Source: an uncultured Alphaproteobacteria bacterium (lineage in GTDB: Bacteria > Pseudomonadota > Alphaproteobacteria > Rickettsiales > UBA1997). Taken from it: a stretch of 40,688 nucleotides of DNA. Within the stretch, counting starts at the first letter, position 1; each line of letters begins with the position of its first letter. The DNA lies in assembly GCA_903927415.1 (NCBI GenBank), contig CAIYMZ010000119.1:1-40688 (forward strand). The letters are read 5' to 3'. Positions 3,310 through 30,817 of the stretch are shown one piece after another. The notes under the pieces were generated by a model. The model was not told the DNA's origin, searched no databases, and was given only the letters and a program-made list of their open reading frames with translations. The translations under genes and the position numbers were made by a program.

Positions 3310-5667
3310 CTAACCAAAAAATCCGCGGCGTTTTTTTGGAGCGCCGTCACGATCATCACGATCACGATTTTCACGTCTATCGCCACCGCGGTCATCACGA
3401 TCACGGCCTCCTCTTCTGTCTCCACCGCGGTCATCACGATCACGACCGCCGCCTCTTCTGTCTCCACCACGATCATCACGATCACGTCCGCCAGAACGAC
3501 GATCATCACGACCACCAGATTCTCTTTCGTCAACTATTTGAGGCTTGTTTGGCAAACGATCTGAAATGTCTTCTCCGGTAATTTGATCTACGCAACGGTA
3601 ACTCAATTTCGGACGACCTTTTTTGTCGAAGCCGATGACTTTAACTTTGACGATGTCGCCTTCATTGATGACATCTTCAACGAAATCAACGCGATATTCA
3701 GCAAGTTCAGAAATGTGAATGAATCCATCGCGATTATTTGAAACGCTAACAAAAGCCCCGGCATCGATCACTTTCACAACTGGACCTTCATAGATGTCAC
3801 CAATTTCTGGTTCAAAAGTAATTTCACGAATCATGGCGATAGCCTTCTTAACTGAGTCAGCATTGTTCGAAGAAATTTTGATGAGACCAGTGTCGTCAAT
3901 GTCGACAACTGCACCAGAAACTGAGCAGATTTCTTTGATCACCGCGCCACGTGAGCCAATAACTTCGCGAATTTTCTTTTGCGGGATAGTCATGGTTTCA
4001 ACTTTTGGAACGTTGGCATTGAGCTCTGCTCTAGGCGCGGTCATAACTTCGTCCATTTTGTCCAAGATGTGCAATCTGCCGACATTAGCTTGCTCAAGAG
4101 CGCGCTGCATGATGTCAGAAGTGATGCCGTTAATCTTGATGTCCATTTGCAAAGAAGTGATGCCTGTTCTGGTTCCAGCAACTTTGAAATCCATGTCACC
4201 GAGATGATCTTCGTCACCCATGATGTCAGACAAAATTACGTAATTGTTGCCTTCTTTGATGAGTCCCATCGCGATTCCAGAAACTGGCGCTTTGATTGGC
4301 ACGCCTGCATCCATCAATGCAAGTGAAGCGCCGCAAACTGTGGCCATTGAAGATGAACCGTTTGATTCAGTGATTTCAGAAACGATACGAGTTGAGTAAG
4401 AAAAATTTTCGGCAATTCCGGGGAATACTGGATTTAAAGCTCTCCAAGCCAATTTTCCGTGACCAATTTCACGACGTCCCGGGGCGCCCATGCGACCAGT
4501 TTCACCAACTGAGTAAGGAGGAAAATTGTAATGCAGCATGAAACTTTCTTCATGCATGCCTGGATCCAAGTTTTCGATTAATTGCTTGTCTTTGCCAGAG
4601 CCGAGAGTTGCAACAACAATGGCTTGGGTTTCGCCGCGAGTGAACAAGGCCGAACCGTGAACTTGTGGCAGAAATCCGGTTTCGATGGCGATTTGACGAA
4701 CTTGATCAGTCTTACGACCGTCGATTCTGATGCTGTTTTTCAAAACATCGTTGCGAACGATTTCTTGCGAAAGTGTTTTGAAGATTGATTTGAGTTTATT
4801 GGCGTCAACACCCGCTTCTTCATTGATGAATTTAGCTTTGATGTCGGCAGAAATTTGGTCGAGCTCACCAGAGCGAACTTGTTTAGCTTGCTTTTTGTAA
4901 GCACTGATTAAGCGGTCGCCGATGAAAGAAGTGATTTCGTTTTTGAGCGTAGAATTGTCGATTTTTACAACTTCAATTTTTTGTTTTCCTGCTGCAGATT
5001 TCAATTCATTGATCAAGTCAATTACGGGCTGGAATGCGGCGTGGCCGAAATTTACAGCTTCTAACATTTCAGCTTCAGACAATTCTTTTGCTTCAGATTC
5101 AATCATCAAAACTGATGATTGCGTTCCTGCAACAACTAGGTCTAAGCGACTGTTTTTAAGTTCTTCGGCGCTTGGATTTAAAACAAATTGGCCGTCGATG
5201 TGGCCAACTCTTGCGCCAGCAACAGCTTCCGAGAATGGAGCTTCAGAAATTGCTAGAGCTGCAGAAGCGGCAATGAGAGCAACAACGTCAGGAGTAGAGC
5301 TCGCATCGTAAGAAAGTACGGTGCAAACGACGTTAACTTCATTGTAAAAATTTGATGGGAAAAGCGGACGGATCGGACGATCGATCAAACGAGAGGTGAG
5401 CGTTGCAGCGTCAGATGGCTTAGTTTCGCGCTTAAAAAATCCACCAGGAATTTTTCCAGCAGCGTAAGATTTTTCGAGATAGTTAACGGTGAGTGGGAAA
5501 AAATCCGCACCTTCAGCAGCTTTATTTGCGACAGTTACGGCACAAAGAATTGTGGTATTGCCATATTTTGCGACCACTGATCCGCTTGCTTGGCGCGCGA
5601 TCTTGCCAGTTTCCAGAGATAGAATTTTTCCATTCCAGTTAATTTCTTTTTTTACAACATTGAACAT
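3310..5667 (-). CDS. pnp: Polyribonucleotide nucleotidyltransferase (PNPase) with an unusual ~75-aa Arg/Gly/Asp repeat tail
   Basis: 785 aa. It has two RNase PH domains, then KH (IGSRGAVIKEI-type) and S1 (GDIYEGPVVKVIDAGAFV) domains, and follows rpsO in the canonical order. Confidence 0.97.
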   Translation of the reverse strand: MFNVVKKEINWNGKILSLETGKIARQASGSVVAKYGNTTILCAVTVANKAAEGADFFPLTVNYLEKSYAAGKIPGGFFKRETKPSDAATLTSRLIDRPIRPLFPSNFYNEVNVVCTVLSYDASSTPDVVALIAASAALAISEAPFSEAVAGARVGHIDGQFVLNPSAEELKNSRLDLVVAGTQSSVLMIESEAKELSEAEMLEAVNFGHAAFQPVIDLINELKSAAGKQKIEVVKIDNSTLKNEITSFIGDRLISAYKKQAKQVRSGELDQISADIKAKFINEEAGVDANKLKSIFKTLSQEIVRNDVLKNSIRIDGRKTDQVRQIAIETGFLPQVHGSALFTRGETQAIVVATLGSGKDKQLIENLDPGMHEESFMLHYNFPPYSVGETGRMGAPGRREIGHGKLAWRALNPVFPGIAENFSYSTRIVSEITESNGSSSMATVCGASLALMDAGVPIKAPVSGIAMGLIKEGNNYVILSDIMGDEDHLGDMDFKVAGTRTGITSLQMDIKINGITSDIMQRALEQANVGRLHILDKMDEVMTAPRAELNANVPKVETMTIPQKKIREVIGSRGAVIKEICSVSGAVVDIDDTGLIKISSNNADSVKKAIAMIREITFEPEIGDIYEGPVVKVIDAGAFVSVSNNRDGFIHISELAEYRVDFVEDVINEGDIVKVKVIGFDKKGRPKLSYRCVDQITGEDISDRLPNKPQIVDERESGGRDDRRSGGRDRDDRGGDRRGGGRDRDDRGGDRRGGRDRDDRGGDRRENRDRDDRDGAPKKRRGFFG

Positions 5668-11332: not shown

Positions 11333-12571
11333 TTATTTCAACAAATTCACATGCCCCATTTTCCTCCCCGCGGCAATTTTTTCCTTGCCGTAAAGATGAA
11401 TTTTCGCACGCGGATTTTTGTAAAATTTTTCGAGATTTTTCACCTCGTCGCCGATCAAATTTTTCATCCGACCTTCAGAATGAAACTCGGTTGAACCCAG
11501 CGGCAAGCCAGTAATCGCACGGATCAATTGCTCGAATTGCGAAGTGACGCAAGCATCCATTGAAAAATGTCCCGAATTGTGCGGCCTAGGGGCAAGCTCA
11601 TTCACGAGCAACTCGTCACCAATCACAAAAAATTCCACCGCCAAAATTCCGACCAAATCCAGCTTCTCGACAATTTTTTTAGCAATCGCCTGCGCCTTTA
11701 TTTGCAAGGCTTTGCTGATTTTCGCTGGATAAATACTTTCGTCCAAAATTCCGTTTTTGTGGATGTTGGTGAGAGGTGCGTAAGTTTTGATTTCAGAATT
11801 TTTCGAGCGCGCCACCAACACCGAAATTTCGGAATCAAACGGACAGAATTTTTCGAGGATTAATTCTGGACCCCGCAACAAGTGCGGGGTGACAAGTTGG
11901 GAGTGCGGGGTGACAAGTTGGGAGTGCGGGGTGACACCGAGCGTGAGTTGTGTCACCCCGCACTCCCAACTTGTCACCCCGCACTCCCAACTTGTCACCC
12001 CGCACTCCCAACTTGTCACCCCGCACTTGTTGCGGGGTCCATCGACCAACTGACTCCAAACTTTTTGCACCTCCGCAACCTTCGTCAAAACAAACTGCCC
12101 CTTGCCGTCGTAACCCATTGTCGCGGTTTTCAGAATCGCTTTCCCAAATTTTTTCAGATTTTTTTGCAGATCTTCAAGGCTAAAAATCTCCGCATAATCC
12201 GCCGTTTTCACCCCAATCGAATTAAGAAAATTTTTCTCCAAAATTCGGTGCTGCGTAATTTTTAAAACTTCCGCCCGCGGAAAAAATGAAACCTGCGAAG
12301 CCACGTAATCCACCGTTTCAAACGGAATATTTTCAAATTCAAAAGTTGCAACATCGACCAAATCCGCAAATTTTTTCAGCGCTTTTTTGTCGGAATATTT
12401 TGCCAAAATTGTTTGATTGGTGACAGAACTTGCTGGCGAATTTTTTTGATCGGTAAAAATAACAGTGCGAAATCCCATCGCCTGCGCCGCGAAACAGGCC
12501 ATGCGTCCGAGCTGTCCGCCGCCGATAATTCCCAAGGTTTTAATTGGGGTTTTTATTTTGAAATTTTTCAC
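11333..12571 (-). CDS. purK: 5-(carboxyamino)imidazole ribonucleotide synthase (PurK) carrying an in-frame repeat insertion
   Basis: ATP-grasp PurK motifs are present: LGIIGGGQLGRM, GYDGKGQ, ELAPRPHNSGH, KMGHV. The long ORF runs to 12664 but would overlap rlmE. GTG at 12571 precedes KNFKIKTPIKTLGIIGGG and gives a normal N-terminus. Confidence 0.9.
   Translation of the reverse strand: MKNFKIKTPIKTLGIIGGGQLGRMACFAAQAMGFRTVIFTDQKNSPASSVTNQTILAKYSDKKALKKFADLVDVATFEFENIPFETVDYVASQVSFFPRAEVLKITQHRILEKNFLNSIGVKTADYAEIFSLEDLQKNLKKFGKAILKTATMGYDGKGQFVLTKVAEVQKVWSQLVDGPRNKCGVTSWECGVTSWECGVTSWECGVTQLTLGVTPHSQLVTPHSQLVTPHLLRGPELILEKFCPFDSEISVLVARSKNSEIKTYAPLTNIHKNGILDESIYPAKISKALQIKAQAIAKKIVEKLDLVGILAVEFFVIGDELLVNELAPRPHNSGHFSMDACVTSQFEQLIRAITGLPLGSTEFHSEGRMKNLIGDEVKNLEKFYKNPRAKIHLYGKEKIAAGRKMGHVNLLK
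11868..12040. repeat. Family A composite palindromic element inside purK
   Basis: The terminal hairpin units are ggaccccgcaacaagtgcggggtgac and gtcaccccgcacttgttgcggggtcc. They enclose 2 forward and 3 inverted copies of the 21-bp unit aagttgggagtgcggggtgac around a 16-nt centre. Confidence 0.95.
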
Positions 12572-12643
12572 GAATTTTGATTTCTTGCTTAGAATGGAAA
12601 GGTGCGGGAAGCTAGGAACCGCCTCAACTTTTTCAACAAATTT

Positions 12644-13417
12644 ATGCCGCAAAAATTTCAGCAATTAAAAAAAGCCAAACGCTTAAAAAAATCTTCGCAA
12701 AAATGGTTGTTGCGGCAGGTGAATGATCCATTTGTTGAGAAGGCGAAGATCGAGGGCTGGAGGTCGCGCGCGGCGTTTAAAATTATTGAAATCGATCAGA
12801 AATTTAAAATTTTTAAGCCGGGGAAAGTTGTGGTGGATTTGGGTGCGGCACCTGGCGGTTGGTCGCAATACGCTGTCACAAAAGTTGGCGAGGGAAATGT
12901 GGTTGGGATCGATCTTTTGGAAATCGATTCGATTCCCGGCGTGACTTTTTTGCAGCAGGATTTTTTGGCGGAAGACGCAGCGGAAAAAATAATTTCCGAG
13001 ATCAAAAATCGCCGACGCAAATTCAATGCCAATTCAACGATGGAGTCATCGCAGATGCGTGACCTCCCCCTTATCAAGGGGGCTGGGGGGATGGTTAACA
13101 TTGTCCTCTCTGACATGGCCGCGAACACCACGGGAGATCACCAAACTGACCATATGCGAATCATTGCGCTGCTCGAAGAAGCGTTAATTTTGGCAGAAAA
13201 AATTTTGAAAGAAGGCGGAGTTTTTGTCGGAAAAATTTTTCAGGGCGGAAGCTCGAATGAGATTTTGAAGAGACTGCGGGAAAGTTTTTCTGTCGTAAAA
13301 TATTTTAAACCTGACTCGTCACGGAAGGATTCGAGCGAAACTTATTTGGTGGCGGTGGGATTCAAATCTAAGAATTTTGCGGCGGAAATTCGGAAGGAAA
13401 TTTTGCGGAAAAGTTGA
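12644..13417 (+). CDS. rlmE: 23S rRNA (uridine2552-2'-O)-methyltransferase RlmE/FtsJ with in-frame repeat insertion
   Basis: Motifs WLLRQVNDPFV, GWRSRAAFK, VVDLGAAPGGWSQ, LSDMAANTTG. The ATG at 12644 (MPQKF...) is preferred over 12602, which overlaps purK. Confidence 0.9.
   Translation: MPQKFQQLKKAKRLKKSSQKWLLRQVNDPFVEKAKIEGWRSRAAFKIIEIDQKFKIFKPGKVVVDLGAAPGGWSQYAVTKVGEGNVVGIDLLEIDSIPGVTFLQQDFLAEDAAEKIISEIKNRRRKFNANSTMESSQMRDLPLIKGAGGMVNIVLSDMAANTTGDHQTDHMRIIALLEEALILAEKILKEGGVFVGKIFQGGSSNEILKRLRESFSVVKYFKPDSSRKDSSETYLVAVGFKSKNFAAEIRKEILRKS
13045..13096 (+). repeat. Family B double-hairpin element inside rlmE
   Basis: gtcatcgcagatgcgtgacctcccccttatcaagggggctggggggatggtt aligns with the copies at 21825-21883 and 23082-23132 (both inverted). 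Confidence 0.85.
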
Positions 13418-19202: not shown

Positions 19203-19232
19203 TTTTTCTCCGTTTTTAAGTTTTGAGTAAAT

Positions 19233-19394
19233 GGACCCCGCAACAAGTGCGGGGTGACACCCTACGTGCAACAAGTGCGGGGTGACACCCTACGTGCAAC
19301 AAGTGCGGGGTGACACCCTACGTGCAACAAGTGCGGGGTGACAAAGCCGAAAGATTTTTTTCAGATTTGTCACCCCGCACTTGTTGCGGGGTCC
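19233..19394. repeat. Family A palindromic element, intergenic copy with 28-bp tandem array
   Basis: It has the same termini as the purK copy. The interior is 4x caacaagtgcggggtgac spaced by 3x accctacgtg, then a 26-nt AT-rich loop and a single inverted terminal unit. Confidence 0.95.
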
Positions 19395-19399
19395 AGAAT

Positions 19400-23626: not shown

Positions 23627-23703
23627 TGGTGGGATCAGTAGGACTCGAACCTACGACCAAGACGTTATGAGCATCCTGCTCTAACCAACTGAGCTATGAT
23701 CCC
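23627..23703 (-). tRNA. tRNA with CAT anticodon (elongator Met or lysidine-modified Ile2), CCA encoded
   Basis: The reverse complement folds by hand into a cloverleaf: GGGATCA TA GCTC AGTTGGTTA GAGC A GGATG CTCATAA CGTCT TGGTC GTAGG TTCGAGT CCTAC TGATCCC A CCA. The G1-C72 pair excludes an initiator tRNA. Confidence 0.9.
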
Positions 23704-23886
23704 GTAAAAAAATTCCATCTGAGCAAGCTCAGTTAGTTAGCAAAAAAATTATTTCTTGTCGCGCTACGCGTCGACGGGAACTGAGCTATGATCCCGTAAA
23801 CAAATTCCATCCGAGCAAGCTCAGTTGGTGGTTAAGATTTTATTTCTTGTCGCGCTACGCGTCGACTGGAACTGAGCTATGATCCC
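23687..23886. repeat. About 91-bp tandem repeat (2.2 copies) that includes the first 17 nt of the tRNA gene
   Basis: aactgagctatgatccc occurs at 23687, 23779 and 23870. The sequences between them are about 85-90 percent identical by eye (..gtaaa.aaattccatc.gagcaagctcagtt....tatttcttgtcgcgctacgcgtcgac.gg). Confidence 0.9.
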
Positions 23887-30728: not shown

Positions 30729-30817
30729 CTTGTCATTCCCGCGAAGGCGGGAATCCAGAATGTTAAAACGAGATTCTATTTAGCTTTCTGGATTCCCGCC
30801 TTCGCGGGAATGACAAG
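30729..30817. repeat. Intergenic palindromic element (gtcattcccgcgaaggcgggaatccaga family)
   Basis: cttgtcattcccgcgaaggcgggaatccagaa (30729-30760) and its perfect inverted copy (30786-30817) flank a 25-nt centre. Each arm contains its own cccgc gaag gcggg hairpin. Confidence 0.9.

Follow-up and report, generated by a model that had tools for sequence, protein, structure and literature searches.

The window analysed here, a 40,688-nt stretch of contig CAIYMZ010000119.1 (assembly GCA_903927415.1) from an uncultured alphaproteobacterium of the Rickettsiales, carries a 173-bp composite palindromic element at 11868–12040, in frame inside purK, the gene for N5-carboxyaminoimidazole ribonucleotide synthase. 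We consider it probable that this palindrome is a non-autonomous member of the superfamily of Ssn-related motifs (SRMs) and the Neisseria Transformation Sequence (NTS) with a behaviour like that of the Rickettsia palindromic elements (RPEs), and that it was inserted in frame into purK in an ancestor of the window clade and later changed by slippage, flipping and decay. SRM hairpins have been described as the generalised form of the NTS (Chenal et al. 2025, Nat Commun 16:2388, PMC11893778). Their enzyme SsnA is a small GIY-YIG protein that binds the motif only as single-stranded DNA (ssDNA), cuts a few nucleotides upstream of it and restricts transforming ssDNA in N. meningitidis; the genes of this type encode a single GIY-YIG domain of about 95 aa (cd10448) and typically stand in the arrangement NTS-ssnA-NTS, and Rickettsia and Wolbachia are among the genomes with more than 300 SRMs (PMC11893778).

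Structure of the palindrome and its position in purK

Read along the sequence from 11868 to 12040, the element consists of ggaccccgcaacaagtgcggggtgac followed by two copies of aagttgggagtgcggggtgac, the centre accgagcgtgagttgt, and three copies of gtcaccccgcactcccaactt followed by gtcaccccgcacttgttgcggggtcc. It can be described as two outward-facing SRM hairpins with repeated 5' halves of SRMs arrayed between them about a non-palindromic centre of 12 nt. An inverted-repeat search gave two arms of 70 nt each (11867–11936 and 11972–12041) that are 100% complementary. The left terminus (11866–11894) is the SRM TGTCACCCCGCACTTGTTGCGGGGTCCAG read on the minus strand and fits the published degenerate pattern, and the right terminus (12014–12042) matches the pattern as TGTCACCCCGCACTTGTTGCGGGGTCCAT on the plus strand; each of them has the layout TGTCAC-CCCGCA-CTTGT-TGCGGG-GTCCA. 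Both inner arrays were found on the plus strand by Tandem Repeats Finder with 100% matches, the left one also by a direct-repeat search. They are built of 21-bp units, AGTGCGGGGTGACAAGTTGGG in 2.7 copies with seven codons per unit on the left (11881–11936) and TGTCACCCCGCACTCCCAACT in 3.7 copies on the right (11951–12027), and the non-palindromic centre cgagcgtgagtt lies between the arms at 11938–11949. The original prediction, made from the letters of the window, had described a palindrome of this order with unequal arms, and the sequence reading, the inverted-repeat search and the tandem-repeat search agree with it. The unit numbers (2 vs 3) were obtained by assembling a perfect palindrome that contains tandem repeats and are assembly-sensitive, all genomes compared in this work being metagenome assemblies.

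The core 12-mer GTCACCCCGCAC occurs 12 times in the window (0.05 expected by chance) and the 26-nt terminus four times (0 expected). Folded as RNA the element reaches -175.1 kcal/mol (z=-21.5), and folded as DNA -105.1 kcal/mol (z=-21.3). At gathering thresholds Rfam gave no match on the window save one tRNA; at permissive E-values several dozen models of miRNA precursors and other long hairpins matched on both strands, far below the thresholds, and these were rejected as generic matches to a perfect hairpin. An exact-sequence literature search found no publication for the hairpin sequence of the element on either strand, and TGTCATTGCGAG returned unrelated primer matches alone.

The element lies inside an open reading frame (ORF) of 443 aa on the minus strand (11333–12664), which was identified as PurK by PDB PurK chains that align in two stretches at E=6e-85 and whose homologues bear the Pfam domains PF22660, PF02222 and PF17769 (ATP-grasp/PurK_C). 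A GTG start at 12571 is consistent with the N-termini of the relatives P0001 and P0002 and gives a coding sequence of 412 aa (11333–12571, minus strand) including an insert of 58 aa, so that 354 aa remain without it, the size that had been expected when the element was predicted to lie in frame in this gene. With one flanking T/A counted, purK is longer by a net 174 nt, equal to 58 codons, and on both strands frames 0 and 2 of the element are free of stops, which confirms that it is open in four of the six frames. Solved PurKs cover residues 5–170 and 232–411 of the window protein and have only four residues opposite a gap of about 61 aa. An AlphaFold2 model, calculated on an alignment of 20 relatives (A1) and used for placement alone at a mean pLDDT (the program's per-residue confidence measure) of 66, puts the insert region (residues 178–240) at a pLDDT <50 between a helix (165–177) and a strand (239–243). 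Judged from sequence comparison, the 173-bp element is an in-frame insertion in PurK that is absent from unrelated PurKs, and according to the model the insert lies in a poorly ordered loop, in line with the loop position that had been suspected.

Motif family, dispersed copies and small GIY-YIG genes

The published SRM search pattern HGTCWYN(0-2)YYVSBRHN(0-5)WNVSBRGN(0-2)RNCYNB (Chenal et al. 2025, PMC11893778) matches the window six times, compared to 0.04 matches in 100 dinucleotide shuffles. Four of these matches coincide with the termini of two elements, the one in purK and a further one at 19.2 kb, and the other two form a pair at 30731–30815. The terminal hairpin carries oriented non-palindromic flanks with GTCA upstream and a C directly after the palindrome (TGTCA-C-CCCGCA-CTTGT-TGCGGG-G-TCCA). 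It shares with the SRM/NTS-SsnA system the frame GTCA[Y]-stem-loop-stem-[R]TCYRG, and the likeness extends to multiple copies, as counted in the window and across MAGs, to related genomes in which the motif brackets an ssnA-like gene, and to a canonical NTS-like pair in the window itself. It differs in the stem and loop, which are CCCCGCA/CTTGT here and TTCCCGCG/AAR in the NTS. The purK unit is moreover an outward-facing doublet with half-motif arrays that stands in frame in conserved enzymes, whereas the NTS is known from the inward-facing arrangement NTS-gene-NTS.

The second copy of the family (19231–19396) is intergenic; it has the start of a RidA/YjgF-like ORF on one side and, on the other, the stop of a bioB-like (biotin synthase) ORF, both named by synteny with a Pfam-annotated contig. 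It has identical 28-nt termini and a 28-bp unit in 3.7 copies on one arm only, and it contains stops in all six frames. The third SRM doublet, found by pattern match at 30731–30815, is intergenic and inward-facing with a 29-nt spacer and has the canonical NTS-like sequence TGTCATTCCCGCGAAGGCGGGAATCCAG. As this canonical NTS-type pair and the purK-type elements occur in the same window, two SRM subfamilies are present in one genome. The doublet is followed by …agtggagagtgcggagcg…, a sequence similar to the array unit in purK.

A scan of a genome collection, in which copy numbers are lower bounds, detected the exact 26-mer terminus in at least 93 stretches from 26 species-representative metagenome-assembled genomes (MAGs), most of them labelled Alphaproteobacteria or Rickettsiales, with a locus GC of 38–65%. 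A genome-wide search for the 12-mer and the terminal 26-mer had been proposed; the counts in the window and the collection scan of the 26-mer show a second copy in the window and many copies in other MAGs, and the element is not unique. In 646 kb of fetched motif loci the SRM pattern has 164 matches, 125 of which belong to the subtype of the window. Two layouts recur among the loci, the outward-facing one of the window type (GGACC-hairpin-GTGACA … TGTCAC-hairpin-GGTCC) and an inward-facing one (TGTCAC-hairpin-GGTCCAG and CTGGACC-hairpin-GTGACA with a spacer of 30–90 nt between them), and the tandem arrays of half hairpins are always on the GTGACA side. High-GC alphaproteobacterial MAGs (loci L016, L024, L040, L044, L045 and L049) have in common an inward-facing element of about 100 nt (e.g. 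L044 7195–7290) in which an SRM of one kind, CCCCGCACTTGTTGCGGGG, is combined with one of another kind, CCCCGGAATAAATCCGGGG, about a conserved spacer of about 30 nt (…gttccaaactcaggc…), which amounts to two hairpin specificities in one unit.

The window and the fetched loci together hold 19 elements of the outward-facing type, and 6 of these are spanned by long ORFs. The host genes are purK in two cases (the window and L093), a gene for a PabB-like chorismate-binding enzyme (L011), comEC (L059), where the copy is a minimal element of 63 nt, and one ORF for an ATPase of an ABC transporter (L067 5008–6843), which holds two separate in-frame elements (net lengths 126 and 147 nt) that repeat one 21-bp unit 4 and 5 times; they are located in the ATPase region at the N-terminus and shortly before the second ABC_tran domain. 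These copies bear out the RPE-like lifestyle that had been proposed. Both open frames are in use, reading GPRNKCGVT… in PurK and WTPQQVRGDK…CHPALVAGS in the other hosts. The array periods of the coding copies are 21, 21, 24, 21, 21 and 21, those of the non-coding copies 28, 23, 24, 53, 22, 41 and 28; this contrast indicates that the host genes are under selection for frame. It is paralleled by the number of open frames, four of six in the purK copy and none of six in the intergenic copy at 19.2 kb.

In three MAGs (L085, L055 and L070) an ORF of about 95 aa with a GIY-YIG domain (PF01541) is bracketed on both sides by the SRM of the window type, and the nearest PDB relatives of this ssnA-like protein are the UPF0213 proteins BH0048 and EF2693. 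When the ORFs within 400 nt of the motifs in the 93 loci were clustered, this GIY-YIG protein was the sole plausible mobilising enzyme among the recurrent neighbours, the remaining ones being peptides encoded by the elements and syntenic housekeeping genes. We then used 80 independent loci that encode relatives of the protein for association counts. Here the exact motif of the window was not enriched (2 near vs 8 far); a scan by structure showed that the stem differs from gene to gene while the frame is shared. The 250 nt to either side of these genes very often hold the hairpin frame TGTCA[T/C]-stem-loop-stem-[A/G]TCCAG with differing stems, usually as TGTCAT-hairpin-ATCCAG in forward direction at -30 to -60 and in inverse direction at +30 to +50. 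TGTCA with a perfect hairpin reaches 1.46 per kb within 300 nt of the GIY-YIG gene and 0.09 per kb elsewhere and occurs at 52 of the 80 loci, and the published SRM pattern has a match within 300 nt of the gene at 40 of the 80 loci and on both sides at 17. By pattern, hairpin frame, enrichment in the window and association with ssnA in related genomes, the termini are assigned to the SRM family, an assignment made from sequence.

Alleles of the PurK loop and competing explanations

The protein alignment A1 allowed us to read the state of the PurK loop in the 20 relatives. The loop is empty and reads …W[PA]Q-[AV]K[ST]QK-LILEKF in P0008, which is 88% identical, and in P0009–P0014, P0017, P0031, P0045 and P0079. 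Inserts of the same family as the one in the window (58 aa) are present in P0001 (51 aa), P0002 (23 aa), P0004 (22 aa) and P0007 (47 aa), and P0003 (DNA in L095) carries a family copy without the right terminus. A different palindromic doublet without a match to the SRM pattern occupies the same loop in P0005 (L096) and P0006, and P0050 has there a further, unrelated insert of about 40 aa. The doublet of P0005 (L096 1472–1607) and P0006 is GTAGGGGCTGGCCTTGTGCTAGCCCGCCTGCGACCACAAGGGTCTCCCC, translated VGAGLVLARLRPQGSP, and starts with GTAG as in repetitive extragenic palindromic (REP) sequences. P0045, whose loop is empty, has an insert at a second site of PurK.

The closest relative P0001 is 97% identical outside the insert. 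Its insert reads …SWECGVT-PSVSC-(VTPHSQL)x3…, the opposite-strand translation of the window element with 1+3 units instead of 3+2. The centre, as read from the protein sequence of P0001, is thus in the opposite orientation, PSVSC compared to QLTLG in the PurK of the window. That near-identical PurKs differ in centre orientation and in unit number supports ongoing slippage, which had been suspected from the unequal arms and fits the differing unit numbers of close relatives, and adds inversion to it. The DNA of the empty allele of P0008 (L094) reads …caa gtc aag tca cag aaa tta…, and this empty site contains GTCAC. A HigB/HigA-type toxin-antitoxin pair (PF05015, PF01381) was seen in L094 (2110–2769) between rlmE/ftsJ and purK, which are directly adjacent in the window.

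A family element at the identical position, with the different inner unit GCTTGTCACCCCGCACTTGTT in 4.1 copies, was found in purK of L093 (Alphaproteobacteria bacterium RIFCSPLOWO2_01_FULL_40_26), which is syntenic with the window at 8–12.5 kb with about 80% identity. The termini of the two agree at every one of 54 bases (54/54), in contrast to 815 of 1066 bases (76.5%) in the remaining purK. This points to constraint on the termini at the DNA level and speaks for the explanation favoured here. The original prediction had named a homologous segment at this position in unrelated bacteria as a finding that would count against an insertion; unrelated PurKs have no insert, but L093, a relative of a different species with about 77% nucleotide identity in purK, does have it.

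Several observations weigh against the explanation favoured here, an SRM-family repeat that entered purK in the ancestor of the window clade and diversified there. In a crude neighbour-joining tree with the insert columns removed, the PurK of L093 groups with the empty-site proteins, apart from the window clade. Since L093 nevertheless carries the element at the same site, the history is not that of one simple insertion, and a single ancient insertion into purK was discarded as a misfit to this tree. Nor is there support for a recent transfer of the whole purK region, as identity is only about 63% in the flanks of 30 nt and 77% in those of 300 nt, no more than the average of the gene. The shared site could go back either to a second insertion at a preferred site or to an old transfer. 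Neither a target-site duplication nor a clean empty-site junction was found, and between the empty allele of L094 and the filled allele there is a small replacement and not a simple insertion. Within the 40.7-kb window there is no ssnA-like gene, and the unit counts come from short-read assemblies. The two motifs in purK face outward and not inward as in the published NTS-ssnA-NTS arrangement, and no known mechanism accounts for the movement of a unit of this kind. Moreover, the sole demonstrated biology of SsnA is the restriction of transforming ssDNA in Neisseria, and transposition of SRMs has never been shown (PMC11893778).

Among the other explanations we considered a function selected by the host, in which purK would be marked for the Ssn-dependent control of recombination or transformation, as with the NTS in Neisseria, its expression would be throttled by the mRNA hairpin of -175 kcal/mol, or the loop peptide would be useful. 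This would be compatible with an origin from SRMs, and it would account for termini that are perfectly kept next to flanks of 76.5% identity and for a loop that is filled in two clades by this family and in a third one by a different palindrome; a role of the NTS in transformation has been published, and the mRNA hairpin is extreme. We nevertheless regard it as unlikely, because the alleles differ without visible restraint in their inner sequence, in length and in orientation, a terminus is missing from one of them, close relatives such as P0008 thrive without the insert, the peptide is predicted to be disordered, and identical elements are found in unrelated genes and between genes. Very unlikely in our view is a classical miniature inverted-repeat transposable element (MITE), that is a deletion derivative of an insertion sequence with a DDE transposase that moves as double-stranded DNA by cut-and-paste via its 28-nt terminal inverted repeats. 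Perfect terminal inverted repeats, short size and many dispersed copies are what such an element would show, and T…A flanks both copies in the window, but this T/A is part of the SRM consensus TCCA(G/T), and no target-site duplication is visible at either window copy or at the purK alleles. In the 646 kb of loci no transposase recurs beside the motif, where the small GIY-YIG protein is alone plausible, and stems that vary between loci within fixed flanks are the mark of an ssDNA-hairpin motif, unlike the terminal repeats of DDE elements.

REP sequences or their paired form, the REPIN, moved by a REP-associated tyrosine transposase (RAYT; Y1 HUH transposase of the IS200/IS605 type) share with the present elements inverted hairpin doublets able to fold into long hairpins, the two relative orientations known from bacterial interspersed mosaic elements (BIMEs), and the logic of a single gene flanked by its own repeats. 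Such an origin is most improbable here, as the conserved flank is (T)GTCA(C) and not the GTAG of REPs, the gene flanked by the motif encodes a GIY-YIG nuclease, and no cluster of Y1 transposases was found among the ORFs within 400 nt of the motifs in the 93 loci, in a comparison that did not scan the ORFs exhaustively against PF01797. That the palindrome is absent from the organism and arose as a chimera or by fold-back during amplification or de Bruijn assembly is hardly credible, although perfect palindromes with tandem repeats are hard to assemble, because the insert recurs at the same site with differing inner structures in independent NCBI, ENA, JGI and Logan assemblies, the same termini appear in 26 MAGs among the matches listed, and the reading frame is kept every time.

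Possible role of Ssn and relation to known repeats

On the assignment to the SRM/NTS superfamily, the element consists of one SRM hairpin present twice in inverted, outward-facing orientation, and tandemly repeated 5' half-motifs fill the space between the two. As ssDNA, its SRMs would serve as binding sites of SsnA, which cuts on the 5' side of GTCA at a distance of a few nucleotides. In the ancestor of the window clade, a copy would have been inserted into the PurK loop that connects the last helix of the ATP-grasp lid region with the next strand, and it would persist because the motif is stop-free in two of three frames per strand, the net length amounts to whole codons and the loop tolerates disordered residues. 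The arrays would expand and contract in steps of 21 bp (seven codons) by slippage, the centre would flip by recombination between the arms, and copies would decay by deletion. As both SRMs in purK face outward, the predicted Ssn cut sites lie inside the element in the arrays of 5' halves, where hairpin extrusion together with cutting or stalling may promote slippage between short direct repeats and thereby give rise to the arrays. In the units of L093 and L067, for example, CTTGT is found ahead of GTCAC and again within the loop, at a distance of 21 nt.

We infer that Ssn is the agent that spreads or maintains the repeats, which might happen through its cutting of ssDNA at hairpins during replication, repair or transformation. 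A wider proposal is that the RPE phenomenon of in-frame palindromic insertions in Rickettsiales-like bacteria is the footprint of the SRM/Ssn system, in which GIY-YIG cutting at extruded hairpins drives inversion, array growth and spread, coding loops being among the targets, and in which the repeated occupation of the PurK loop reflects targeting by GTCAC-like microhomology (…aaGTCACag… in the empty allele) and not selection alone. We put this forward tentatively and hold it to be rather doubtful; if true, SRM/Ssn would supply the RPE machinery.

RPEs, which Ogata and colleagues are said to have described in 2000, are reportedly dispersed palindromic repeats inserted in frame in protein genes of Rickettsia, and we know of no enzyme that has been found since 2000 to mobilise them. 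The elements described here resemble them as dispersed palindromic repeats of 60–340 bp that lie in frame in housekeeping proteins, keep the host ORF open and insert in loops. They differ in their hosts, which are uncultured alphaproteobacterial MAGs and not Rickettsia, and in that a candidate cognate enzyme (Ssn) can be named. No NCBIfam model matched the insert peptides in either open frame (E<=1) or the translations of other SRM doublets (E<=10), a weak test of RPE membership which included no nucleotide consensus. Owing to this negative result the element is not filed as an RPE, and the earlier impression that it is unrelated to the RPE consensus is upheld as far as the test goes. No publication that joins RPEs with GIY-YIG proteins was found in the literature search, which also returned nothing relevant joining GIY-YIG with REPIN, REP, MITE or COG2827.

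With REP/BIME/REPIN-RAYT systems the SRMs share an ssDNA hairpin with a short oriented flank, doublets in both directions and a single-copy enzyme gene bracketed by its own repeats, and the analogy to REP-RAYT was drawn by the authors of the Ssn study themselves (PMC11893778). The systems differ in the fold of the enzyme (GIY-YIG vs HUH Y1), in the flank (GTCA vs GTAG) and in that REPs are typically extragenic. Further comparison is offered by repeats of Neisseria itself.

The Neisseria intergenic mosaic elements (NIMEs) are mosaics of repeat units bounded by dRS3, of which the NTS is a subset, and the Correia elements of Neisseria carry TA duplications. NIMEs resemble the purK element in that short units are arrayed as a mosaic with the dRS3/NTS hairpin core at their borders, and Correia elements as small elements with terminal inverted repeats that are abundant in one lineage. 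Both are intergenic, however, the Correia elements have different termini in addition to their TA duplications, and neither forms in-frame arrays with a 21-bp period.

In the Ssn study the architecture of NTS-ssnA-NTS, similar to that of an insertion sequence, is raised as a hypothesis alone, only 2% of the NTS in N. meningitidis 8013 are found inside genes, and neither coding insertions nor RPEs are discussed (PMC11893778). New with respect to this 2025 paper are the outward-facing doublet with half-motif arrays, the repeated in-frame residence in conserved enzymes with a constraint to multiples of three, the natural allelic series at a single loop and the bridge to RPEs, which links two bodies of literature without mutual citation in the library searched. 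The locus offers a concrete case in which the motif and, from a sister genome, a candidate enzyme can be named, in which one gene of an essential pathway occurs in nature with an empty, filled, flipped or truncated site, and in which a frame constraint on array growth is visible. SRMs are more than intergenic recombination marks, as they can become parts of proteins and put a hairpin of -175 kcal/mol in an mRNA. It might also be possible that many 'lineage-specific insertions' and odd short ORFs in alphaproteobacterial MAGs (…GPRNKCGVT…, …CHPALVAGS…, …VIPAKAGIQ…) are translations of SRMs.

Apart from the SRM elements, the window contains at 23627–23886 a tRNA-Met gene (CAT; 23627–23703, minus strand) followed by a 91-nt tandem repeat in 2.2 copies with 89% matches. 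Each copy of this repeat restarts with the first ~18 nt of the tRNA-Met (aactgagctatgatcccg), giving three tRNA 5' ends in a row, and it may be the scar of integrations or excisions at the tRNA. Another tandem repeat of 39/42 nt (3353–3492) has about three copies with 85–88% matches and is rich in TCACGATCA/CCTCC.

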